Shown piece after piece: positions 730 through 36,226 of a DNA stretch of 64,000 nt. Location of the stretch: assembly GCA_038882975.1 (NCBI GenBank), contig JAVZNE010000007.1, positions 1-64,000 on the forward strand, read 5' to 3'. Made by a program: the position numbers and the translations under genes. The notes below the pieces were generated by a model. That model was not told the DNA's origin, did no database searches, and saw only the letters and a program-made list of their open reading frames with translations. Source of the stretch: Candidatus Bathyarchaeia archaeon (GTDB taxonomy: Archaea > Thermoproteota > Bathyarchaeia > Bathyarchaeales > Bathycorpusculaceae). Within the stretch, counting starts at the first letter, position 1, and each line of letters begins with the position of its first letter.

Positions 730-2115
730 CTATGTAACAGGCGTGAAGGGATGCCAAACCCTTCTAGGCTCTTCACCTATAAGAGCCAAATCCTTATCTT
801 TTATAATAGCCACGCTGAGGGCGGCAGCAGTAGCCATAAGAGACATAATTCCAGTGCACTGTGTTATGTAGGCGAGGTTGACTGTCCGTGAGGAAATCTC
901 AAAACTGTAATGCACTGGAATACGTCCCAAGTATAGACCATCATAAACCACAAATGTCGTCAAGTTTCCTTTACCATATTTGAGAAAGCCATCATTGTCG
1001 TATTGCCCGTTAAGAATTATTATAGTTGGAACTTCCACACTTCCAATCTGTACTTTGCCATTAAAACTGAAGGAGCCCCCGCTGTTGGCTTTAGAAGCAT
1101 CGTAAAGCAGTCCGGCAGCATACAGCCTATTTAACATTACTCTTGTTTCACCTAGGGATATGCTGGCAAGCTGAGACCAAATGTTGTATAATGAAATGCC
1201 TATGCTATCAGTGTAAGCTGTTCCTTCATATGTGTATTGCATGATTACCCACTTTGCGTTATCTTGGCTTGCCAGCCCCGTCGAAGCATAAGCAGCTCCA
1301 AAAAGTAGGGCAGCTAAAAGCACTGCAACTATCGCTTTTGTGGTGCGCCCTAGACCGACTGGTTTGGCTGGTGTTGGCGTGAAAATCACGTATGATGGAA
1401 AGGCTGTTTGCCTTGCAAGTCTGAACTGGATGAGCCTTTCTTTGCTAGCAACTACTGGTAGGATTGCTATGCCGGCTATGAAGCCTCCTGCGTGGGCGAA
1501 GACGGCTGTGCTTCCACTTAACCTGAAGTAGCCGTAAATAACTTGGGTTGCAAACCAGAAGAGGAGGTAGTAGGCAGCTTTCAACCTGAAGAACATTGGG
1601 AAGTATAGGAAGAACCATCCCATAACCAGCGAAGTGCCAGGAAAAAGAATTAGATATGCGCCTAAAACTCCGCTTATGGCTCCCGAAGCGCCTATGGCTG
1701 GAATAACGTAGGCTGTTGCTCCGCCCAAGAAGCTGAAGGCTGTGTGAAATATGGATGCAACAACGCCAGAAAACATGTATAAGGCTAGGAAACGCCACTT
1801 GCCAAGGGCTTCTTCAACAGCTCTTCCAAAAATGTATAGGAAGTACATGTTGAAAAGTATGTGGAAGAGGTCTGCGTGCAAAAACATTGAAGAGAAAATC
1901 CTATACCATTGGGTTGGCATAGGCGTTAGCGCCGGAACAAAGCCCCCAGCGCTTACCCAATAGTCGCTTACTTCTAGGAAGAGGTTCTCGTAGGACGTTA
2001 TGGCGTATACGGCAATGTTAACTATTACTATGGCGAGGGTTGCTACCGGTCTCTTTCTAAACTGGGATAGGTCTCCCATTGGAATGCCTAAGCTTCTTTT
2101 TAAAGCGCCTGCCAA
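730..2115 (-). CDS. Rhomboid intramembrane serine protease with long C-terminal extension
   Basis: WYRIFSSMFLH, HILFNM, catalytic GASG and AHAGG motifs, then ~230 extra aa. Confidence 0.9.
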   Translation of the reverse strand: MAGALKRSLGIPMGDLSQFRKRPVATLAIVIVNIAVYAITSYENLFLEVSDYWVSAGGFVPALTPMPTQWYRIFSSMFLHADLFHILFNMYFLYIFGRAVEEALGKWRFLALYMFSGVVASIFHTAFSFLGGATAYVIPAIGASGAISGVLGAYLILFPGTSLVMGWFFLYFPMFFRLKAAYYLLFWFATQVIYGYFRLSGSTAVFAHAGGFIAGIAILPVVASKERLIQFRLARQTAFPSYVIFTPTPAKPVGLGRTTKAIVAVLLAALLFGAAYASTGLASQDNAKWVIMQYTYEGTAYTDSIGISLYNIWSQLASISLGETRVMLNRLYAAGLLYDASKANSGGSFSFNGKVQIGSVEVPTIIILNGQYDNDGFLKYGKGNLTTFVVYDGLYLGRIPVHYSFEISSRTVNLAYITQCTGIMSLMATAAALSVAIIKDKDLALIGEEPRRVWHPFTPVT

Positions 2116-2186
2116 TTCGCCGTTGCCTCTGCGCTAAAATATCCGCGTAAAGCCCTATATAATTTGTCTGCTGTGGCTGGTGCTTT

Positions 2187-3146
2187 TTACCTTGTTAGGT
2201 ATTTCCATGAGAGCATTATGCCTATTGTAGCGAGGACTGCTGTAAATATACTTAGGTATGTGAAATCCAAGATTAGGGCTGACGTGTCCATTGGCAGTAT
2301 GGTTAGGTTTCTAATGGCGTCTGTCAAGTATGTTAGCGGGTTTACGTTGGCTATAGCTTGCATCCAGTCTGGCATAAGCCTTGTTGGGAAGAAGGTGTTG
2401 CTGGCAAACATTAAAGGCATTGTTATTAGGCTTACAAACTGCATTGGACGTTCCATCCTCGTCGACCTTATGGAGAAAGCCAAGAAAACCGATGAAAGCC
2501 CCACACCAAGCAGAAATATTGCCGCGTAAACGCCTAAAATGTTGAGGATTGTGAAGGTGCCGCTTAACTGCAGTCCCAAAAGATATGCCAGCGCCAAAAT
2601 TACTGTGGCTTGGAACATTGCCCTAAAAGTAGCGTTGAAAATTTTTGCGAATATTATGGCTGCCCTCGAGACTGGAGTGCTGATCACTTTGTCCAGAAAG
2701 CCCAAGCGTCGGTCCCAAACTATTGACATGCCGCTAAACATTGTTGTGGTCATGACTATCATTGAAACCATGCCTACAGCCATAAAACTGAAGTAGTCTG
2801 CAACGCCGAAAGTGTCTTGCATTATTTGTGACCCCATGTTAGCGAACATCTGCGAAAGCACTGTGCCATTAAGAACCACGCCGCTGACTCCGGGCGGATA
2901 TAGAACAGCGTTGCCGGAAATTGGTATTTGTTGTGGTAGGTTTATGTTGTTGGCTGAAAAGAGTCCGCCTATATTCATTGATTTTCCCAATAAGCCCATC
3001 CATATGAGGGGTTGGAGCACAAACATTGTTAGCATGACTGGATCTTTGAGCCACTTTTTCAGTTCGCGGTAGGTTAAAGCCCACAATCCCCTCATAAGGC
3101 TTGGCTTGCACTCGTTGGCAACGTTTGGAGAAGCAACCCCGCTCAT
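2187..3146 (-). CDS. ABC-2 type exporter permease (DrrB-like)
   Basis: Multiple TM segments; DRRLGFLDKVISTPVSR and NPLTY motifs; overlaps the ATPase gene. Confidence 0.9.
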   Translation of the reverse strand: MSGVASPNVANECKPSLMRGLWALTYRELKKWLKDPVMLTMFVLQPLIWMGLLGKSMNIGGLFSANNINLPQQIPISGNAVLYPPGVSGVVLNGTVLSQMFANMGSQIMQDTFGVADYFSFMAVGMVSMIVMTTTMFSGMSIVWDRRLGFLDKVISTPVSRAAIIFAKIFNATFRAMFQATVILALAYLLGLQLSGTFTILNILGVYAAIFLLGVGLSSVFLAFSIRSTRMERPMQFVSLITMPLMFASNTFFPTRLMPDWMQAIANVNPLTYLTDAIRNLTILPMDTSALILDFTYLSIFTAVLATIGIMLSWKYLTR

Positions 3147-4147
3147 GTTTTCCTAGCCCTCCTCAAGTGCAGTCTTTGAGCCATAAACTCCATGCGGGAC
3201 TCCTCTGTGTCGCGCATGGCTCTACCAGTGTACTCCAAATAAACCTCGTTTAGGGTTGGCTCCGTAAGCGAAAGCCTCGTAACCGTGTAGCCCTTCTTCC
3301 TCAAAGCTTCAATTATTAGTGGGGCTGTTGCCTCTCCCTTTTCAGCCTTAATCCTATAAGCGCCGTTCTCGCTTCTAACTTCCTTAACATTTTCAACGCT
3401 TTTAATTATACCTGTTACGTCCGCGTTTTCTCTTATGGTTATGGTGATTATGTCTCCGCCTAAGCTGTCCTTAAGCTCGTTTGGCGAGCCGGTCACGATT
3501 ATTTTGCCGTGGTCTATTATGGCTATGCGGTCGCAGAGGGCGTCAGCCTCCTCCAAATAATGCGTAGTCATAAAAAGTGTCATGCCATACTCCTTCTTCA
3601 AACGCCTAATATAATCCCAAGTGGCAGCCCGCGTCTGCACATCCAAACCCAAAGTCGGCTCGTCCAAAAAGAGCACTTTAGGACGGTTAATAAGCCCGCA
3701 TGCAAGCTCAAGCCTTCGGCGCATCCCACCCGAGTAGGTTTCAACCCTCTTATCCTTAAACTCCGTGAGTTCCACGAGTTCCAGCAGTTCCAAGGCACGT
3801 TTTTTGGCAACGTCGCGGGGAATTCCATATAAATCTGCACAGAGCATCACGTTCTCGTAGCCAGTCAAATCCTCGTCTGCAGTGTACTCTTGGGGCACAA
3901 CGCCAATCACCTTTCGAACCTCGTTGGCTTGTTTAACAACGTCATAGCCCAGCACCGAGGCAGTGCCCTCTGTCGGCTTCAGCACGGTTATCAGCATATT
4001 TATCGTTGTTGTTTTTCCAGCCCCGTTTGGACCCAAAAAGCCGAAAATTTCGCCGTCGCGGACGCTGAAGTTTATGTGGTCCACAGCCACTAGACTCTTG
4101 TTAAAAATTTTCGTCAAGTTTTCAGCCCTAATCACTTCTTCTGTCAA
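3143..4147 (-). CDS. ABC exporter ATP-binding subunit (DrrA-like)
   Basis: Walker A GPNGAGKTT, signature YSGGMRRR, Walker B LFLDEPT. Confidence 0.95.
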   Translation of the reverse strand: MTEEVIRAENLTKIFNKSLVAVDHINFSVRDGEIFGFLGPNGAGKTTTINMLITVLKPTEGTASVLGYDVVKQANEVRKVIGVVPQEYTADEDLTGYENVMLCADLYGIPRDVAKKRALELLELVELTEFKDKRVETYSGGMRRRLELACGLINRPKVLFLDEPTLGLDVQTRAATWDYIRRLKKEYGMTLFMTTHYLEEADALCDRIAIIDHGKIIVTGSPNELKDSLGGDIITITIRENADVTGIIKSVENVKEVRSENGAYRIKAEKGEATAPLIIEALRKKGYTVTRLSLTEPTLNEVYLEYTGRAMRDTEESRMEFMAQRLHLRRARKT

Positions 4148-4809: not shown

Positions 4810-5484
4810 TTACTCTATTAACGTTCCAACCGGTTTTCCTTCAACTGCCAGCAATAGGTTTTCTGGCTTAAACCCGTTTAGGACACGGACTCTTATGCGC
4901 CTAACTTTTAGGATTTTTATGGCTTCTGGGTCTAGGATTTGATGGATTCCAGCCTTGTGCTTATCTTCGGCTAAAACTTTTGGTAGTTCTTCAAAGCCTA
5001 CCCTATTAAGTTTTACAGCGTCTGGATGCCTCCTCGGGTCTTTTGTGTATACGCCTTCCTGATCTGTGGCTTTAATGAGCATATCCGCCTTTATGCTTTC
5101 AGCCACCAAAGCAGCGACGGTGTCGGTTGTCATACCCGGTTTTAAGCCGCCTAAAACTGCGATTTTCCCATTTTCTAGGCATTGGACAGCCTCTTCCACG
5201 CTTGTTGGGATTTTTTCGCATGCCAGTCCGCCCAGCATTTTGGTGAAAAGTTGGGCGTAAAGCCTTGAAACACTGATCGCCAAATCATCCTGATCTTTTT
5301 CCGCCAAGCTAAGTTCTTTGGCTATTTTTATGAACTCTCTTGCTAGGGCTCCTCCGCCCACAACAACTGCCAGCATATGTCCTTCAGCCTTCAGCCTCTT
5401 CAGAATCTTGGCGTATTCGCTTATCAGTTGGGTGTTTACTGGCGTGGCAACAACAGAGCCGCCAAGTCGGATTACTATTCGCAT
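4810..5484 (-). CDS. pyrH: UMP kinase (archaeal type)
   Basis: IRLGGS, VVVGGG, PGMTTDTVAA, GVYTKDP motifs. Confidence 0.9.
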   Translation of the reverse strand: MRIVIRLGGSVVATPVNTQLISEYAKILKRLKAEGHMLAVVVGGGALAREFIKIAKELSLAEKDQDDLAISVSRLYAQLFTKMLGGLACEKIPTSVEEAVQCLENGKIAVLGGLKPGMTTDTVAALVAESIKADMLIKATDQEGVYTKDPRRHPDAVKLNRVGFEELPKVLAEDKHKAGIHQILDPEAIKILKVRRIRVRVLNGFKPENLLLAVEGKPVGTLIE

Positions 5485-12482: not shown

Positions 12483-14018
12483 ATGCATAAGGTGCAAATA
12501 GACGGGGAAACCTTAACTATAGAAGACGTTGTAAAGGTTGCATATAATAAAGCTAAAGTTGTTGTTCCAGAAAAGGTTAAAGCTCGTGTGAAGGCTTGCC
12601 GGGAATTTTTGGAAAGGCTTTTGGAAAAGGGCGAGGTAATCTATGGCGTGAACACTGGTTTTGGAGCTTTAAGCGACGCAAAAATTTCTAGAAGTGAGCT
12701 TAAAAAGCTTCAAATAAATCTCATTAGGAGCCATGCCGCTGGTGTTGGAAAGCCGGTGAGCACCGAAGTTGTTCGGGCTACAATGCTTTTGAGGGCGAAC
12801 ACTTTGGCGAAGGGATATTCTGGCATACGCTTAGAAACCCTAGAAACTCTTGTGGAGATGCTTAACAAGGGCGTCCACCCAATAATACCAGCAAAGGGCT
12901 CCGTCGGCGCAAGCGGGGACTTGGCACCCCTTTCCCACATGGTTCTTGTCCTTATGGGCGAAGGCGAAGCCGAGTATAAGGGCAAAATAATGAGTGGAAA
13001 GGAAGCCATGGAAAAGGCTGGAATAAAACCCATCCAACTAGAAGCCAAGGAGGGCATAGCCTTAAACAACGGAACACAACTGATGACTGCCATAGCCGCC
13101 CTAACAGTTCACAAAGCAGAAAGCCTAATAGAAACAGCGGAGGTAGCCGCCGCCATGTCAATGGAAGCACTATTGGGCATTTCAGACGCTCTGGACGAAA
13201 AAATTCACATGGTTAGACCCCACGAGGGACAAGCCATAACAGCCAAAAACATTAGGGAGCTAATCGCCGGAAGCAAACTCATCCAAACTGGAAAAGAGGC
13301 AATGACAAAAATCGGGCGCCCCCATGACGCCTACAGCCTAAGATGCACGCCACAGGTGCTTGGTGCAGTGAGGGATGCCATAGCATACGTGAGAAAAGTG
13401 GTTGAAATCGAATTAAACTCGGCAACTGATAATCCCCTAATATTTCCAGAAGAAGGCGCATGCCTTTCGGGAGGAAACTTCCATGGGCAGCCGATAGCGT
13501 TGGCGATGGACACCCTTACAATTGCCCTAGCAATAGTCGGCAACATCTCAGAAAGGCGAATAGCCCGCCTCATAGATGAAAAGCTAAACAACGGCTTACC
13601 AGCCTTCCTAACACCGCCACAAGCAAAAAGGGGCTTAAGCAGCGGATTAATGACAGCCCAATATACAGCGGCAGCCCTAGCCTCAGAAAATAAAGTCTTG
13701 GCGCACCCAGCGTGCGTAGATTCAATACCGACTTCGGCAAACTTCGAAGACTTCGTAAGTATGGGAACAACAGCAGCCCAAAAAGCCATGCAAATACTGG
13801 AAAACACAGAATACATAATTGCCATAGAACTTCTATGCGCAGCCCAAGCAATAGATATCCGCGGACCAGAAAAACTTGGAAGAGGAACTCGGAAAGCCTT
13901 CAGAAAAGTAAGAGAGGTTGTGCCGCCGCTGGGGGAGGATAGACCCCTAAACCCGGATATAGAAAAGCTAAAGGCGTTGGTTGAAAGTGGACTAATTCTA
14001 CAAAGCATTGCGGAATAA
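12483..14018 (+). CDS. hutH: Histidine ammonia-lyase
   Basis: IYGVNTGFG, MIO-forming GASGDL, DAYSLRC, GGNFHGQP, EDFVSMG. Confidence 0.93.
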   Translation: MHKVQIDGETLTIEDVVKVAYNKAKVVVPEKVKARVKACREFLERLLEKGEVIYGVNTGFGALSDAKISRSELKKLQINLIRSHAAGVGKPVSTEVVRATMLLRANTLAKGYSGIRLETLETLVEMLNKGVHPIIPAKGSVGASGDLAPLSHMVLVLMGEGEAEYKGKIMSGKEAMEKAGIKPIQLEAKEGIALNNGTQLMTAIAALTVHKAESLIETAEVAAAMSMEALLGISDALDEKIHMVRPHEGQAITAKNIRELIAGSKLIQTGKEAMTKIGRPHDAYSLRCTPQVLGAVRDAIAYVRKVVEIELNSATDNPLIFPEEGACLSGGNFHGQPIALAMDTLTIALAIVGNISERRIARLIDEKLNNGLPAFLTPPQAKRGLSSGLMTAQYTAAALASENKVLAHPACVDSIPTSANFEDFVSMGTTAAQKAMQILENTEYIIAIELLCAAQAIDIRGPEKLGRGTRKAFRKVREVVPPLGEDRPLNPDIEKLKALVESGLILQSIAE

Positions 14019-15835: not shown

Positions 15836-16318
15836 CTAAAACTGCTTCAAGATGTCACTTTTTTCCATGATATAGCCGCAGTAGTGGCACTTCAAGATTA
15901 GGGGCTCCTCACTTTTAACATAAAATTTTGACTGAACCGGCTCGTTGCTATTGCTTATGCAGGCTGGATTTGCACACTTGACAATGCCCTCAATAACATT
16001 TGGAAGTTTAACCCTCTGCTTCTCGACAACATTATAGTTTCTGATGATGTTTATGGTTGCATGGGGCGCCAAAAGGGCGATTTTATGAACCTCCTCAGGT
16101 TTTAGCTCTCTTCCCTCAATTTTGACTATGTCTTTAACCTTAAACCGCTTGCTTGGAACGTTGATGGCTATGGTGATTATGCGCTTCTCCTTACCTGTTA
16201 TCCCCAAAATCTTGATGACATCTAAAGCATGTCCGCCAGTTATGTGGTCTATAACGGTTCCATCCTTAATTTTTGAAACATAAAGCATTGTTTCGCTTTC
16301 GTTCATGGGCTTATCCAC
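15836..16318 (-). CDS. pyrI: Aspartate carbamoyltransferase regulatory chain
   Basis: GTVIDHI, KDIVKIE, CANPACISN, CHYC. Confidence 0.95.
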   Translation of the reverse strand: MDKPMNESETMLYVSKIKDGTVIDHITGGHALDVIKILGITGKEKRIITIAINVPSKRFKVKDIVKIEGRELKPEEVHKIALLAPHATINIIRNYNVVEKQRVKLPNVIEGIVKCANPACISNSNEPVQSKFYVKSEEPLILKCHYCGYIMEKSDILKQF

Positions 16319-16491: not shown

Positions 16492-17424
<933 letters not shown>

Positions 17425-17430
17425 GTTCTG

Positions 17431-19638
17431 TTAGAAGCGTGTAAAGGTTGTTAATGTGCCAATAGAACCACATGTTGGACATTTTTGAGGCGTGCCAAAC
17501 CAGCTTTTGCGGCACTGGCTACAGTGGGTTAGGTTGCGGTTGTACGTGAAAAATCCCAGTTTGTAGTCTTCAATAAACTTCTTTGTAAATGAGAAAAGTG
17601 TTTCTGGTGCGTATTCGGCTTCCCTAAGCTCTAAAACTGTTAGGTTTCCGCCATCAAGCGGCTCGTAAAGCTCTTTTTCAATGGCTAGAATTTTCGATTG
17701 GATTTCCAAGTTTTGAAGGTTTATTTGACTGTAGGCCGAATAGTGGGGCTTTTCTCTTGTTCCTTGGAAGCGAACCTTCACAACGCCGAACCTTTCAATA
17801 TCCTGTTTTGCCAGCCTTTCAGAGGCATCGGCACAAGGCAAAGCGGATGGGAGAAGCCTTTTCTCTCGTCTTCCACTTTTTGGCAAGAATTCTAAGACAT
17901 GTTTTACGATTTCTGACGCGATTTCTTGGGCTTTCTCGTCTTCGTATATGCTTTTTCCGCTGAGGATTTCGGAAGCCTCTTTTAATCCAACTAGGTTTAT
18001 TAAACGTGCTGCGCCTTCAACTCTAAAATATTGGTCACCGTTAGCTGAATGTGTCAGAAATGGTAGAAAACCTCTTGCTCGTTGTTTTAAAGCTTTGTGC
18101 TTTATTTCTAGGGCTCGTGCCGCCATCTCAAGTCTCTCTCTTAAAAATGTAAAGAGTTTTCTTTCATCCTTGCCGCATTCAAGGGCTATTCTAGGCAAGT
18201 TAACGGTTACAAGTCCTAAAATGCCCGTGCGCACCGTGTCAATTTCCCAGTCCTCTTTGAAGTCTGCTTTTAGGATACTTCCAGACGGTGAAAAAATCGT
18301 GTACTGCTCATTTTTGCCGGAAAGGTTTGCGAAGTATGGTGTGCCCCTTTCTGAGGCTAGGTGATGTGCCCTTAGGAGAATATCTGCTGCTGCACTATTT
18401 TTGAGGGTTTCTGGGCGAATTTTAACTATAAGTTTTGGGTTTAAAAGTGGCTTTTCAATGCTTTCTTCCTCAAAAACTTCAAGAACCATTGAGGCTAAAA
18501 GCTGGCTTTCATTGAGATAATCGCCATAACAGTTGCTTGCCGAGTCCATGGCAGGCTTGTCCACCAAAAATTCTGGAATTGTCAACTCGAGATTTATGGA
18601 GGCGTTAACGTGGCGGCTGATGCTAATGACGAAGAGCCTCAAAGCCTCTTTGATTTCGGCTTTGTCCAAGCCTCTAAGGAAAGGCGCCAAAAAAACATTG
18701 AAATATTCAAGCACTTGCGTCCCATCGGTTTCCTTTGATGCTTGTAGAAGAATGTTAAGGGTTAGGTTTAAGGCAGATTCAAAACTTTTCGGCGGCTTTA
18801 TGGACGGTTGGGAAATATTTGCGGGGTTTAGGCTTAAGCCGTTCTTTATGAAGAACCTTAAGTCATGGACTATTTCGCTTGGCTTCAAAACCCAGTAACC
18901 TAAACTGTGAAGATGAATTTCCCCTGAAAGGTATGCATCTGCAATATCCCTTGGCAACACGTTTAAAAGCGTGTACTCCTCAAGAACGCTTTTCCCGAAA
19001 CCTTCGCAGATGGAAAACGCGTCAGCCGATGCTTTGCCCTTCATGAAATGGATTGAAGCGTCATGCACTGGCAGCCCTAAACGGGTGAGCTTGTGTCGGT
19101 ACTCCTCCAAGCCCTTTTCAATGAGGATTCCATTGACGACCTCCCTTATCAACGGAGCAGTTAAATAGCGGGTCCTAGCCTTTAGAAGACGTTTTTCAGC
19201 CTCTTTTGCTATTTTTTGGGCGAGCTCTGGGGGCATTCCAGCCTCCTTGATGAGAGAGTTCGCAATTTTTGTGACATCGAATTCTTCTAGGGTGAAGCGG
19301 GATGTTCTGACAAGGATTCTTTGGGCTCTTAAACTTCGCTTTTCAATTTCTTCAGCTACGTCAATAACCATTTTGCCCAAATCTGTTAGGCGATACTTTT
19401 TAGACTCCACATCAGCCTCAATCAAATCCGCCTTAAGCAAAAACTTTAAGTGATAGGCAAAACGACCTGCGTCCCTACTTGGATTCATTTTTAAAAAGCT
19501 CATAAGCTCGGTATAGGAAAGTGGACCATGATAAAAAAGAGCAGTTAAAATGTTAAGCCTAACAGCTGAAGAAACCGCTTTCAAAACACGGATTCCCCGC
19601 AGACGCTGATGCTGGTGCTGGCTAGACAAGCCTTCCAC
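17431..19638 (-). CDS. ArsR-type wHTH + ATP-cone + class III ribonucleotide reductase (NrdD)-like fusion, apparently catalytically degenerate
   Basis: HTH RLNIL...FAYHLKFL...YRLTDLG; ATP-cone VRTSR...EEFD...LTAPLIREVV; NrdD motifs HLH, RTGILGLVTVNLPRIA; Zn ribbon CSQC/CPTC; no RxxGY loop. Confidence 0.85.
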   Translation of the reverse strand: MEGLSSQHQHQRLRGIRVLKAVSSAVRLNILTALFYHGPLSYTELMSFLKMNPSRDAGRFAYHLKFLLKADLIEADVESKKYRLTDLGKMVIDVAEEIEKRSLRAQRILVRTSRFTLEEFDVTKIANSLIKEAGMPPELAQKIAKEAEKRLLKARTRYLTAPLIREVVNGILIEKGLEEYRHKLTRLGLPVHDASIHFMKGKASADAFSICEGFGKSVLEEYTLLNVLPRDIADAYLSGEIHLHSLGYWVLKPSEIVHDLRFFIKNGLSLNPANISQPSIKPPKSFESALNLTLNILLQASKETDGTQVLEYFNVFLAPFLRGLDKAEIKEALRLFVISISRHVNASINLELTIPEFLVDKPAMDSASNCYGDYLNESQLLASMVLEVFEEESIEKPLLNPKLIVKIRPETLKNSAAADILLRAHHLASERGTPYFANLSGKNEQYTIFSPSGSILKADFKEDWEIDTVRTGILGLVTVNLPRIALECGKDERKLFTFLRERLEMAARALEIKHKALKQRARGFLPFLTHSANGDQYFRVEGAARLINLVGLKEASEILSGKSIYEDEKAQEIASEIVKHVLEFLPKSGRREKRLLPSALPCADASERLAKQDIERFGVVKVRFQGTREKPHYSAYSQINLQNLEIQSKILAIEKELYEPLDGGNLTVLELREAEYAPETLFSFTKKFIEDYKLGFFTYNRNLTHCSQCRKSWFGTPQKCPTCGSIGTLTTFTRF

Positions 19639-19743
19639 ATCTCCCCCTACTTGAATTAGTTATAGTGCGGTAAGGGTTTAAAGGTTAAGAAAACACCTTT
19701 ATTAAACCTACACAAACTAAAATGTGGGCAGCATAAACCAAGA

Positions 19744-19821
19744 GGGGCTGTCGGCTAGCTTGGTCTAGGCTCTGAGCCTCGGGCGCTCGGGACCCCGGTT
19801 CAAATCCGGGCAGCCCCACCA
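19744..19821 (+). tRNA. tRNA-Pro (anticodon CGG)
   Basis: GGGGCTG/CAGCCCC acceptor stem, TGAGC-CTCGGGC-GCTCG anticodon arm, GGTTCAAATCC T-arm, encoded CCA. Confidence 0.93.
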
Positions 19822-19837: not shown

Positions 19838-20824
19838 TTATGTTATGAAGTGTTTGTAGATTGGGTGTCCCTTAAATCGTAGCGTCGTCTCCGACTTCTC
19901 TATTGTTCCGCTTGGAAGCCTTATACACAAAGAGCTTACTACAGCCCCGTTTGGGATGAAGCGCACCCCATCTAACAGTTCGCCCTTCGTCACGCCGGAA
20001 GCACAAAATACAAGCTCTTTGCCTCTAGCCAATTCATCCTGATTATAGGTTTTGTCTAAGTCCACGCCTTCAGCCTCTAATCTTTCAAGCCTTTTCTGGT
20101 CATCGCTTTTGTCCCTCCAAACCCTAACAAGCATCGTTCCACCCAAACATTTTACAGCGGTTGCGGCTATGGTTGCTTCCGGTCCAGCACCAGCACCTAT
20201 CAGCAAGTCTACACCCGAGCCTTGAATGCATGTTGCCACTGCCGCAGCAATGTCCCCATCAGGTATTAGGATTATCCTCACACCAATTTTCCTAAGTTTC
20301 TGAAGAATTTCCATGTGCCTTTCGCGTTCAAGCATTATCACCGTAAAGTTTTCTATCGGCAATCCTTTTGCCTCAGCTACCGTTCTAACAATTTCTTCTA
20401 TTGGCATTTCCAGCGATATCTTCCCTAAGGCATGGTGGTCCGCTGCCACCTTAAAATAGTATCCATCGTCTGGGAGAACTTGCAAACAGCCTTTTGGTGC
20501 ACAAGCCAAGGCGGAAATGGCATCTTTTCTCCCCTTTGAGGCTGCTGTTGTCCCGTCAACAGGATCTATTACAAACTCAACCTTTGGTCCCCTTCCAGTT
20601 CCAACTTTCTCCTTGCGTAAAAAGGCTGGGGCATTGTCTTTAGGTCCTTCGCATACAATTACTTCGCCATTCACCTCCGTCTGGGCTAGGACAGCCCTAG
20701 AAAACTGAACAGCCTTCTCGTCTATCAAATTTGGGTCTCCTTGACCGATATGAAGTGCCGCGCCAACAGCCGCCGCGATCGTGATGCGCGTTAAAGAAGG
20801 CGCCAAAGCCCTTAAAGAGACCAC
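19838..20824 (-). CDS. glpX: Class II fructose-1,6-bisphosphatase (GlpX family)
   Basis: VIVCEGPKDNAP, IDPVDGTT, RERH, LIPDGDI, GPEA, ASGVTKGELL. GTG start at 20824 after a GAGGA SD. Confidence 0.85.
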   Translation of the reverse strand: MVSLRALAPSLTRITIAAAVGAALHIGQGDPNLIDEKAVQFSRAVLAQTEVNGEVIVCEGPKDNAPAFLRKEKVGTGRGPKVEFVIDPVDGTTAASKGRKDAISALACAPKGCLQVLPDDGYYFKVAADHHALGKISLEMPIEEIVRTVAEAKGLPIENFTVIMLERERHMEILQKLRKIGVRIILIPDGDIAAAVATCIQGSGVDLLIGAGAGPEATIAATAVKCLGGTMLVRVWRDKSDDQKRLERLEAEGVDLDKTYNQDELARGKELVFCASGVTKGELLDGVRFIPNGAVVSSLCIRLPSGTIEKSETTLRFKGHPIYKHFIT

Positions 20825-21090
20825 GTTTATTCCTCGAATGAATATATGAAAGCTTACTTCAGATATGTTTTTAGCTCTAAAAGGCGGTAAATTCTTGGAG
20901 AGTACATTTTGCCTCAAAGCGACTTTGGAAAAAGCAGAAAACCAAGGCTTTTTGACATGCCAGAATGCAAAAACTGCGAGTATAAGGGCAGCCGTTACTG
21001 CTGGAACCAATGCCCATACAATATATGGCGAAAACGTTAAAGTAAACAGCCCCCAAAATCTATGTTAAAGCAGGTCTAAAAGGGATATTT

Positions 21091-22503: not shown

Positions 22504-23295
22504 ATGACTGAAAACAGACAATTTGCTGAAAGTTTTAAAGGCTGGTTTAAAAGCGAAATTTTCTCAAAAACCGCTCTTCCATTTGAAACACCCTTTTTTG
22601 TAAGGCTTGACGGCTGGAGGTTCCGTGAACTCGCCGACGCTGTGGGTGCAGAGAAACCCTTTGACAAACAATTCGCACTATGCCTCGTTAATTCTGGAAA
22701 AGCCCTATTCGAAAAGGGTTTCAGCCCAACATTAGTTTATGTTGTAAGCGACGAATTAAACATACTTTTTGATGGCAAAGCACCATTTAACGGCAGAATA
22801 GAAAAAATAGACTCAATTATACCAAGTCTTGTTTCAGCAGCGTTTTCCATTCAGCTTCAAGAGTTCTTTAACAAAAAGGTTGTTGCAGCCTTTGACTCCC
22901 GCATAATTGTCGTCCCTAACGATGAAAAAATGGTGGGTTATCTGACTTGGAGGCAAACAAACGCTTGGAGAAACCACAATAACGCTTATGCCTACTGGCT
23001 TTTCAGAAAAATGGGCTACAAGCCTTCAGAGATAGCTAAAAAACTAAAAGGCATGAAAACTGAGGAACTCCACGAACTCCTCTTTAAGCATGGCATAAAC
23101 TTGGCTAAAACTCCTCAATGGCAGAGAAGAGGCATACTCATACATAAAAAGCCCTATCAAAAAAGAGTCGCAAACCAGAGTGTCACCCGCGGGAAGATAA
23201 CGGAAAATTGGAATACACCCTTGTTCTCTTCGGAGGAGGGAACAAAATTAATCCGACAGATCCTCGAATGGATGAGGCAGAAAAGGAGAACCTAA
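22504..23295 (+). CDS. thg1: tRNA(His) guanylyltransferase / Thg1-like protein
   Basis: VRLDGWRF, SDELN, FDSR, WRQ, GINL motifs. Confidence 0.9.
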   Translation: MTENRQFAESFKGWFKSEIFSKTALPFETPFFVRLDGWRFRELADAVGAEKPFDKQFALCLVNSGKALFEKGFSPTLVYVVSDELNILFDGKAPFNGRIEKIDSIIPSLVSAAFSIQLQEFFNKKVVAAFDSRIIVVPNDEKMVGYLTWRQTNAWRNHNNAYAYWLFRKMGYKPSEIAKKLKGMKTEELHELLFKHGINLAKTPQWQRRGILIHKKPYQKRVANQSVTRGKITENWNTPLFSSEEGTKLIRQILEWMRQKRRT

Positions 23296-34600: not shown

Positions 34601-36226
34601 ATGGTTAAATACATTTTTGTGACGGGCGGCGTTTTAAGCTCCGTTGGTAAGGGTATTGTAACTTCATCTATTGGAAAGATGCTTCAAGCCAGAGGGTTTA
34701 AGGTTACCGCCATAAAAATCGACCCTTACGTGAATGTTGACGCTGGAACCATGAACCCATACATGCACGGTGAAGTTTATGTGACAGACGATGGCGGGGA
34801 AACAGACTTGGACTTGGGTTGGTATGAACGTTTCTTAGACTTAAACTTGAAAAGGGAGAACAACATCACCACGGGTATCGTTTACAAGGCTGTTATTGAA
34901 AAGGAACGGCGGGGCGACTTCCTCGGAAGATGCGTCCAAATAGTGCCCCATGTGACTAATGAGATAAAGAGCCGAATAAGGAATGTGGCTTTAAACGCGA
35001 AGGTTGATGTTGCTCTAACAGAGGTTGGCGGAACCGTAGGCGACATTGAAGGCTTACCCTTCCTTGAGGCTATAAGGCAGATGCGCCTTGAAGAAGGCTA
35101 TGAAAACACTTTGTACGTGCATGTTGCCCTAGTCCCAATATTGGACGTTACAAAGGAGATGAAGACAAAACCCTTACAGCACAGCGTCAACGAGTTAAGG
35201 CGAATAGGCATACAACCAGACATAATAGTGGCAAGATGCTCCAAAATGATAGATTCAGAAGCCTTGAGAAAAATAGCCTTGTTCGGCACAATTCCGGAGA
35301 ACGCCGTTTTCTGCTCATACAACGTTGAATCCATCTATCAGGTTCCGCTAATCCTCGACGAGCAGGGAATGGGCAGCTTCATATGCAAGAGGCTTGGGCT
35401 TCCGGAACACAAACCAAACTTTGAAGACTGGAGGAAGTTCGTTAGTGCTGTACTGAACCCGGAACACGAGGTCAAAATAGCCTTGGTGGGCAAATATGCC
35501 GGACTAGCAGATAGCTATGTAAGCATGAGTGAGGCACTGCGCCACGGTGGTGCGGCATGCAAAACAAAAGTGGACATCCACTACATGGAAGCAGAAACCT
35601 TCGAGAGAAACCCCAACAAGGTTCAAATGCTGAAAGAATTTGATGGAATCTTCGTCCCGTATGGTTTCGGTCCAAGGGGAACTGAAGGAAAAATTATGGC
35701 TATAAAATTTGCAAGAGAAAACAACATACCGTTTCTGGGCATATGCTATGGCTTCCAATTAGCCGTTGTGGAATTTGCCAGAAATGTATGCGGCTTTGAG
35801 AAGGCAAACAGCACAGAAATAGACCCAAACACACCCCATCCAGTGATAGACCTAATGCCGGAGCAGAAGGGCATAGAATATAAGGGCGCAACCATGCGCC
35901 TCGGAGCCCACAAAATAGTCATAAAACCAAACACCACGGCGCATATGCTATACAAAAGCGAGGAGGTTTATGAGCGCCACCGCCACAGATTCGAAGTCAA
36001 CATGGACTATGTCGAAAAGCTGGAAAAGAATGGCTTGGTTTTCTCTGGGAGAAGCCCAGACGGAAGGAGAATGGAAATCCTAGAACTGCCCAACCACTTC
36101 TTCTTTTTCGCATCCCAATTTCACGGGGAATTCAAAAGCCGCCCGGGAAAGCCAGACCCAGAATATTACGGCTTTGTCAAGGCTTGCTTGGACAGGAAGC
36201 TTGGAAAGACTAAACCCGAATTCTAG
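34601..36226 (+). CDS. pyrG: CTP synthase
   Basis: [44 protein letters not shown] at 34601. Confidence 0.97.

Follow-up and report, generated by a model that had tools for sequence, protein, structure and literature searches.

A catalytically dead class III ribonucleotide reductase fused to a winged helix-turn-helix domain, a candidate nucleotide-responsive transcription factor of Bathyarchaeia

The window, that is, the whole stretch of DNA that was analysed, comprises the 64,000 nucleotides at positions 1 to 64,000 of contig JAVZNE010000007.1 (assembly GCA_038882975.1) of a Candidatus Bathyarchaeia archaeon. The gene under study is an open reading frame (ORF) on its reverse strand. A preliminary description, made from the sequence alone, had read this ORF as an apparently dead class III ribonucleotide reductase (RNR; NrdD) fused to a DNA-binding domain. 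The features of the gene, hereafter the fusion gene, are as follows.

17431..19638, reverse strand: whole ORF of the fusion of a helix-turn-helix (HTH), an ATP-cone and a dead NrdD; 735 amino acids (aa) from GTG 19638, more likely 732 aa from TTG 19629
19360..19587, reverse strand: winged helix-turn-helix (wHTH), aa 18-93, with the recognition-helix motif RDAGRFAYHLK; Pfam DUF7347
19099..19311, reverse strand: ATP-cone, aa 110-180; found by Pfam, and aligns with the cone of the canonical paralogue
18994..19098, reverse strand: cone-to-barrel linker, aa 181-215, with invariant R181, R186, G188 and P190 in its first part
17539..18993, reverse strand: NrdD-like alpha/beta barrel without catalytic residues, aa 216-700; PF13597, AlphaFold2 (AF2) and Foldseek
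18874..18876, reverse strand: E255 in place of the first-strand catalytic Cys; from BLASTP and hhalign alignments with the host's canonical NrdD
18277..18279, reverse strand: S454 at the position of the finger-loop thiyl-radical Cys; alignments
17470..17523, reverse strand: C-terminal Zn ribbon, C706-x2-C709 ... C720-x2-C723; four Cys invariant in the family
17431..17469, reverse strand: truncated tail of 12 aa and stop; glycyl-radical domain absent

Domain architecture and loss of the catalytic residues

The ORF proposed in the preliminary description is real, but its start is probably misplaced. Because homologous proteins begin MSSQ... and a Shine-Dalgarno-like GGGGGAG lies upstream (19647-19641), translation probably starts at TTG 19629, nine bases inside the listed ORF, giving a protein of 732 rather than 735 aa. 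The four domains that had been proposed, a wHTH, an ATP-cone, an NrdD-like barrel and a C-terminal Zn ribbon, were all recovered. The wHTH matched Pfam DUF7347 (32.7 bits, cut-off 27.6), while the ArsR-type models HTH_20 (20.2 bits, cut-off 27) and HTH_5 (19.2, cut-off 22) and the model NF033788 (24.9, cut-off 55) scored below their cut-offs. The ATP-cone scored 29.8 bits against a cut-off of 25.8 (PF03477), and residues 216-730 matched positions 18-534 of the 562 in the NRDD profile PF13597 (242.6 bits). With the TIGR02487 NrdD equivalog model the fusion scored 267.4 bits, under the cut-off of 326.35; the canonical NrdD of the same genome scored 594 bits. A sequence search of the PDB with the cone alone (aa 100-200) returned no ATP-cone structure at E <= 10; the assignment of the cone therefore rests on Pfam and hhalign.

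The AF2 model of the fusion (pLDDT 87.4, pTM 0.77) is consistent with this architecture. All top Foldseek matches were NrdD proteins, first the ATP-cone-bearing enzymes of S. thermophilus and P. copri and then those of T. maritima and T4, with E from 1e-26 to 1e-18 and TM from 0.58 to 0.75 depending on the target. Residues 5-103 were modelled in a helix-helix-helix-hairpin pattern. Modelled as a dimer, residues 1-215 reached a score of 0.20, below the mark of 0.42; this gives a dimer no support and is no evidence either way.

In the NrdD of Prevotella copri, residue roles have been assigned to Cys171, Cys416 and Gly711 (PMC11226230). The fusion could be aligned with the canonical NrdD of its own genome from cone to ribbon, at 25% identity over 673 aa (BLASTP, E 3e-43) and with probability 100 and E 7e-60 in the profile-profile comparison by hhalign. 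BLASTP and hhalign both placed the canonical first-strand Cys on E255, within KPSEIVHD, and the finger-loop CC of the canonical enzyme was paired with G453-S454, bearing out the proposal that both catalytic Cys are lost; in a HMMER alignment with the fusion, the first Cys of P. copri NrdD (8p23) fell in an unmatched insert. The C-terminus, ...TLTTFTRF*, was aligned by hhalign with canonical 'EVYSR', two residues before the G of RVVGY. Since the protein stops two residues short of the radical Gly of the canonical enzyme, its glycyl-radical domain is absent, and no R..G[YF] was found downstream of the stop in three frames over ~300 nt, in agreement with the preliminary description. A split NrdD with a separate downstream glycyl-radical ORF was also considered and ruled out, because the stop codon of the convergent pyrB gene lies only 6 bp from the fusion stop and leaves no room for it.

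These losses are shared by the family. Two samples were used throughout: 66 diverse family members, and 40 loci from 40 genomes of the phylum, hand-chosen rather than random. The loci were taken from the 150 best-scoring rows, with one or a small number for each family, and weaker matches, such as those of families f23, f38 and f42, were left out. The first-strand column held Cys in none of the 66 members and the finger-loop column in only seven, the others having S, L, F, T, D and so on. A GY-like motif was found in one of the 66 (P0145, doubtful) and in none of the 40 phylum loci; the homologues thus give no sign of a restored RxxGY loop. About half of the members (32/66) keep a tail of 30-50 aa homologous to the glycyl-radical domain; in distant members this tail aligns to that domain but the Gly is replaced, and in the clade of the window protein it is deleted. 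All 12 fusion-family sequences of a 13-sequence alignment end 8-15 residues past the ribbon. The substrate-contacting Glu of PcNrdD 'TPAEG' corresponds to A603, with E at this column in only 15 of the 66 members. By contrast, the ribbon Cys C706, C709, C720 and C723 are invariant (66/66).

The fold and much of the barrel are kept under purifying selection and 32 members retain a glycyl-radical-domain-like tail, as might be expected if the protein were still an enzyme: either a reductase that takes its radical from a second, glycyl-radical protein or works by other chemistry, or a new non-radical nucleotide enzyme. We consider this highly improbable in view of the column and motif counts given above, the score under the NrdD equivalog cut-off and the lack of an activase in the four f15 genomes tested. 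Judged by its sequence, the fusion is an NrdD homologue that departs from the catalytic members of the family at every catalytic position.

The host's other reductases and the breadth of the family

The host genome (1.42 Mb in 15 contigs, 94.7% complete) carries separate intact RNRs. Contig 11 bears, in order, an NrdR-like ORF, a canonical nrdD and nrdG (765-4031). The canonical NrdD scores 664 bits to PF13597 and has an 'MCCR' finger loop and 'RVVGY'; the NrdR-like ORF, read by eye, encodes 147 aa with a Zn ribbon and an ATP-cone. NrdR is rare in archaea (PMC9110341). A class I/II RNR lies on contig 1. The sole NrdG above cut-off in the genome is the one beside canonical nrdD, consistent with the claim that no activase lies near the fusion gene. 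As the genome has both a canonical nrdR-nrdD-nrdG operon and a class I/II RNR, its gene content indicates that catalysis does not need the fusion protein.

A broken gene would likewise have a truncated C-terminus and lack catalytic residues, and we weighed whether the ORF is a pseudogene in decay, or a real nrdD distorted by misassembly or a frameshift. A Logan contig of run X1, an independent unitig over the stop region, spans 17400-17778 with 0 differences, no indels are listed within the fusion ORF, and no sign of a 3'-end assembly error was seen. X1 alone among the runs covers most of the stretch, and possibly it is the source sample itself; the homologues are for that reason a stronger argument against an artefact than the reads. 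Three runs with small shares (X2, X3 and X10) matched through relatives at <95% likeness and are uninformative on the host strain, and no RNA run was among those listed for the stretch. The same truncation and architecture recur in more than 120 independent assemblies and 79 syntenic loci, frames are open at about 700-780 aa throughout the phylum, and the rate of nonsynonymous substitution (dN) is far below the synonymous rate (dS). The pseudogene or artefact reading is already refuted, and we leave it practically no weight.

The preliminary description had treated the fusion as a single odd gene, whereas it is one member of a phylum-wide family. Database searches returned more than 120 homologues of about 720-740 aa at 59-88% identity with the same Pfam set, most of them named from Bathyarchaeia metagenome-assembled genomes (MAGs). 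An exhaustive HMMER search of 50%-identity representatives gave 2026 matches, 383 of them at E <= 1e-30. Among the 66 diverse members, NRDD was found in 66, DUF7347 in 66 and the ATP-cone in 65 (E <= 0.001). The HTH and cone part (aa 1-215) was matched in 285 of 401 sampled genomes of the phylum, in 226 of 335 high-quality genomes and in 116 of 162 genera, within open frames of about 615-790 aa; it was not found in families f24 (0/23), f25 (0/12) and f30 (0/15). A pattern scan of species genomes returned at least 599 stretches, at least 595 of them confirmed, and the best 80 were all from Bathyarchaeia-type MAGs. In family f15 the fusion was present in 56 of 56 genomes, in which the best NrdD-family matches were weak, at E 1e-6 to 1e-23, and NrdG above cut-off was found in none of five genomes tested, four closed f15 genomes and G008 (f21). 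Relatives of an f15 protein, at about 64-65% identity, are publicly named from Nitrosopumilus and Nitrosarchaeum, where annotations vary between anaerobic RNR, HTH protein, ArsR regulator and ATP-cone protein. Atlas hits in Promethearchaeota, Nanobdellota and Woesearchaeota, with clusters of this domain set in the first two, are leads only.

In an alignment of 110 sequences (560-810 aa), rows with the HTH never carried the full catalytic set, and rows with the full set carried no HTH. A barrel-only FastTree of 108 rows placed all HTH rows in one 84-row clade with SH-like support of 100, and no row of this clade had all three catalytic residues. The wHTH was likely added once, at the N-terminus and at the base of a large archaeal clade; a single origin is likely rather than proven, because the support values of FastTree are local and the tree contains long branches. 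Another set of NrdD-like sequences (P0183, P0186, P0187, P0205, P0219, P0249, P0212, P0214, P0233-P0236, P0255 and P0257), lacking some or all catalytic residues and the HTH motif, branched with canonical NrdDs outside the fusion clade, and may have lost catalysis independently. Canonical NrdD representatives of 1100-1700 aa (P0176, P0178-P0180, P0193, P0197-P0203 and P0208-P0216) matched in at least two separated stretches, probably owing to intein insertions.

The preliminary description had asked whether the fusion is conserved under purifying selection, and it is. Between the fusion and four relatives (57-63% identity), dN was 0.27-0.36 and dS was saturated, at about 2.3 where dN was 0.27; the proportion of synonymous differences (pS) was 0.71-0.80 in all four comparisons, and dN/dS is therefore only an upper bound, at about 0.12-0.15. 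By domain, dN came to about 0.13 for both HTH and cone and to 0.33 for the barrel, which evolves about 2.5 times faster yet remains constrained. Over the 66 members the consensus fraction per column averaged 0.70 in the cone, against 0.58 in the HTH and 0.47 in the barrel. The invariant positions are concentrated in the recognition helix, at R111 of the cone, around the cone end and linker (R181, R186, G188 and P190) and in the ribbon. The recognition-helix motif is conserved over the 40 phylum loci, reading SKKESGKF in f15 and SRDAGRF in Bathyarchaeia.

Gene neighbourhood and promoter region

The following features of the window surround the fusion gene or concern pyrimidine synthesis.

16504..17424, forward strand: pyrB, aspartate carbamoyltransferase (ATCase) catalytic chain, convergent with the fusion gene; Pfam OTCace_N and OTCace
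15836..16318, reverse strand: pyrI, ATCase regulatory chain, divergent from pyrB; Pfam PyrI and PyrI_C
34601-36184: pyrG
4813-5478: pyrH
19744..19821, forward strand: tRNA-Pro(CGG), divergent from the fusion gene; ARAGORN
19639..19743: putative compact promoter shared by the divergent fusion gene and tRNA-Pro, with two conserved TATA-like boxes about 20 bp apart

That the fusion gene converges on pyrB, with pyrI, pyrH and pyrG in the same window, had been pointed out from the sequence; the link to pyrB proved stronger than could have been known from one locus, and it extends to RNR and dCTP deaminase genes. The convergent junction spans 6 bp, so that the fusion and pyrB transcripts would have to overlap at their 3' ends. 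Among the best 80 Bathyarchaeia loci of the at least 599 stretches, pyrB followed directly, tail to tail, in 79, with an apparent gap of 11-39 bp; at the one locus without a pyrB match the gene match reaches the contig end. pyrI was present in 31 of these loci, many of which have short flanks. No upstream protein gene was conserved (0/80); the conserved upstream neighbour, visible in the Bathyarchaeia loci inspected, is tRNA-Pro.

Over the phylum the partner changes. A nucleotide gene lay within 4.5 kb, and mostly within 400 bp, in 29 of the 40 loci, representing 19 of 25 families. pyrB was found in 16 loci and pyrI in 16, many with both; two of the pyrB matches are weak (31-33% identity, on the 5' side of the fusion). 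Canonical nrdD lay directly downstream on the same strand in four loci. Three of these genes were verified to encode the Cys, CCR and R[IV]TGY; the one at L157 seems interrupted, shows the finger motif only and is followed by nrdG. An ATP-cone class I/II RNR gene was near the fusion in five loci and dCTP deaminase (dcd) in three. In f15 an RNR gene follows the fusion by 200-444 bp in 22 of 24 loci, and in two loci dcd follows by 16-24 bp, in what looks like an operon. Four different kinds of nucleotide gene thus recur beside the fusion. By our own rough estimate, a nucleotide neighbour would be expected by chance in a few percent of loci (about 6 such genes among about 1600, 8 neighbours), related genomes not being independent.

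Four loci have canonical nrdD beside the fusion and many have pyrB/pyrI, an arrangement that would also suit a regulator at the protein level: a dead NrdD acting as a pseudoenzyme subunit that modulates RNR or the ATCase PyrB/PyrI, with the wHTH serving protein contacts or localisation. NrdD is dimeric and has effector sites where its two subunits meet (PMC11226230), and a dead paralogue could for this reason pair, in principle, with active NrdD. However, there are f15 genomes with the fusion but without canonical NrdD or NrdG, so a heterodimer with NrdD is not its general role, and the recognition helix of the wHTH is among the best conserved segments, as expected for contact with DNA. We regard a protein-level role as unlikely.

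The region between the fusion gene and tRNA-Pro (19639..19743) is a block conserved among the Bathyarchaeia loci inspected. In f15 (loci L162-L181 and L125), GATC was strongly over-represented upstream of the fusion gene (100 observed, 15.3 expected) and between the fusion and the RNR gene (78 observed, 15.5 expected), and the sites lay most often 10-12 or 20-21 bp apart; counts for the other palindromic tetramers of equal composition were only 3-35. In genome G299, 2 of the 18 triple-GATC clusters genome-wide lie at the fusion locus, one upstream and one in the spacer before the RNR gene (C1:216090-216113 and 218445-218488), and in G060 2 of 12 do, one upstream and one within the ORF; a control pattern gave 12 (G299) and 10 (G060) matches genome-wide. 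The spacing fits phased operator arrays, and the GATC sites are candidate operators or methylation sites.

Several other neighbours were noted. The window encodes an aromatic amino-acid/histidine ammonia-lyase (12483-14018), a GlpX-type fructose-1,6-bisphosphatase (19838-21010) and a Thg1-like tRNA-His guanylyltransferase (22504-23295), all identified by Pfam and none conserved beside the fusion. At L145 a small CPxC ORF, by eye like a glutaredoxin or NrdH-type redoxin, lies between the fusion and canonical nrdD. Upstream in f15 and f21 is a conserved pair unrelated to nucleotides, a thiolase-like gene and a small Zn-ribbon ORF (L123 2570-4137, L126 7575-9126; from N-terminal sequences), and a NAC-like ORF lies downstream of the fusion in L126 and L139.

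Interpretation and comparison with known systems

The fusion retains the barrel fold, the ATP-cone and the Zn ribbon of NrdD while both catalytic Cys and the glycyl-radical loop are gone, and its gene is kept beside pyrB/pyrI, nrdD (with or without nrdG), a class I/II RNR gene or dcd. We think it probable that the protein is a descendant of class III RNR that regulates (deoxy)nucleotide metabolism as a one-component transcription factor responding to nucleotides. ATP/dATP or other (deoxy)nucleoside triphosphates ((d)NTPs) would bind to the ATP-cone and perhaps also to allosteric or substrate pockets left over in the barrel. An NrdD-type dimer would present two wHTH domains; nucleotide occupancy would alter the oligomeric state or the geometry of these domains and so switch DNA binding at the fusion's own promoter and at those of neighbouring nucleotide genes. 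In the window, the candidate target is the divergent pyrB-pyrI promoter. The protein would then be a functional counterpart in archaea of bacterial NrdR, and perhaps of PyrR. The preliminary description had likewise proposed an RNR scaffold reused as a (d)NTP sensor that controls DNA binding. This idea is supported in part: every check that was run agreed with it, while (d)NTPs as the ligand, sensing by the barrel rather than by the cone alone, DNA binding by the HTH and the set of controlled promoters are inferred.

The cone bears most directly on the nature of the signal. Canonical 'VRKRDG' aligns to 'VRTSRF' in the fusion (hhalign, own canonical NrdD), so that phosphate-binding 'KRDG' reads 'RTSR'; the family-invariant R111, R181 and R186 and the near-invariant Y180 are retained. 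Nucleotide-contacting roles in the ATP-cone have been given to an N-terminal K-R and a C-terminal Tyr/Arg (PMC11226230), and some of the retained residues may correspond to these. In canonical NrdD the region between cone and barrel contains the linker and the substrate flap (PMC11226230), to which the fusion linker would correspond by position. The altered phosphate-binding residues, the poorly conserved substrate-contacting Glu and the four invariant ribbon Cys would all be compatible with a transcription factor that does not sense nucleotides, in which barrel and cone serve as a scaffold or for oligomerisation and the signal is redox state, metal at the Zn ribbon or a metabolite, or in which the protein is a constitutive chromatin or architectural component. 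We hold this, too, to be unlikely: the cone is the most conserved domain and keeps its invariant arginines, and the neighbours are specifically nucleotide genes of four different kinds. ArsR-type metal sites use Cys. A Cys-based site of this type is unlikely here, because the HTH region has no Cys.

Several observations weigh against a nucleotide-responsive transcription factor. The ligand may be other than ATP/dATP, because the cone scores just above the Pfam cut-off and 'KRDG' reads 'RTSR'. A gapped-dyad scan and k-mer enrichment over 121 regions upstream of the fusion, 92 upstream of pyrB and 48 upstream of pyrI found no shared operator in Bathyarchaeia, and returned only tRNA stems, TATA-like boxes and coding sequence. 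The GATC arrays are limited to f15, where the recognition helix is different, and nothing ties them to the fusion protein. Eleven of the 40 phylum loci have no nucleotide gene nearby, and convergent orientation to pyrB is unusual for a regulator and its target. In several loci canonical nrdD lies between the fusion and pyrB, so part of the pyrB linkage may be inherited synteny of an ancestral nrdD-pyrB neighbourhood. Finally, nrd regulation in the host genome may do without the fusion, because NrdR adjoins nrdD there.

A broader version of the regulator hypothesis can be put forward only tentatively. The family may constitute a phylum-wide, possibly wider, archaeal master regulator that reads the (d)NTP pool through the cone and the surviving RNR allosteric pockets and sets transcription of the genes for RNR of any class, dCTP deaminase and aspartate carbamoyltransferase. 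Such a regulator would fill the role that NrdR has in bacteria and explain the regulation of dNTP synthesis in archaea without NrdR. Little is known of how archaea control the transcription of genes for dNTP and pyrimidine synthesis, and the family occurs in about 70% of the genomes sampled from a single archaeal phylum. Since it occurs, by public names, in the cultured ammonia oxidisers Nitrosopumilus and Nitrosarchaeum, a biochemical test is feasible. Public records label many members 'anaerobic ribonucleoside-triphosphate reductase'; carried into metabolic reconstructions, this label would attribute a class III RNR in error to aerobic ammonia oxidisers and many MAGs.

Of known proteins, the closest are the class III RNRs of P. 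copri, S. thermophilus, T. maritima and T4, with which the fusion has in common an ATP-cone, a ten-stranded alpha/beta barrel, a finger loop and a C-terminal Zn ribbon. Unlike these NrdDs, it lacks the glycyl-radical loop, the thiyl Cys and the first-strand Cys, has an extra N-terminal wHTH and no adjacent activase, is present in genomes without any class III system, and falls short of the TIGR02487 equivalog score. Full-text literature searches, with supplements and subscription journals outside their scope, found no description of an HTH-fused or catalytically dead NrdD, and a term search of the RNR phylogeny paper PMC9531940, within the text it covered, returned nothing relevant to an HTH-fused NrdD. 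Nor did the full-text searches find an RNR or other glycyl-radical-enzyme scaffold used as such a regulator; the fusion, if its proposed role is true, would plainly show the scaffold of a radical enzyme put to new use as a sensor.

NrdR resembles the fusion in that each combines an ATP-cone with a module for binding DNA and is encoded beside RNR genes. In NrdR, nucleotide occupancy of the cone controls promoter binding (PMC9110341), and the logic proposed for the fusion would, by analogy, be the same. The phased arrays of f15 recall paired NrdR boxes (PMC9110341, PMC12176259). The two proteins differ in that NrdR, which is bacterial and rarely archaeal, binds DNA through an N-terminal Zn ribbon, whereas the module of the fusion is a wHTH. 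The fusion also contains a whole dead RNR barrel, is about five times larger and is ordered wHTH, cone, barrel and C-terminal ribbon; its associated genes include pyrB/pyrI and dcd, and its genome encodes a separate NrdR homologue.

Two other regulators embody the same principle, in which the fold of a pathway enzyme is kept as the sensor for regulating that pathway. PyrR, a phosphoribosyltransferase-like regulator of pyrimidine metabolism, acts on RNA. NrtR, an enzyme-derived regulator, joins a Nudix-like domain to a wHTH (PMC2330246). The fusion would share this principle with PyrR and NrtR, but its fold is different from theirs.

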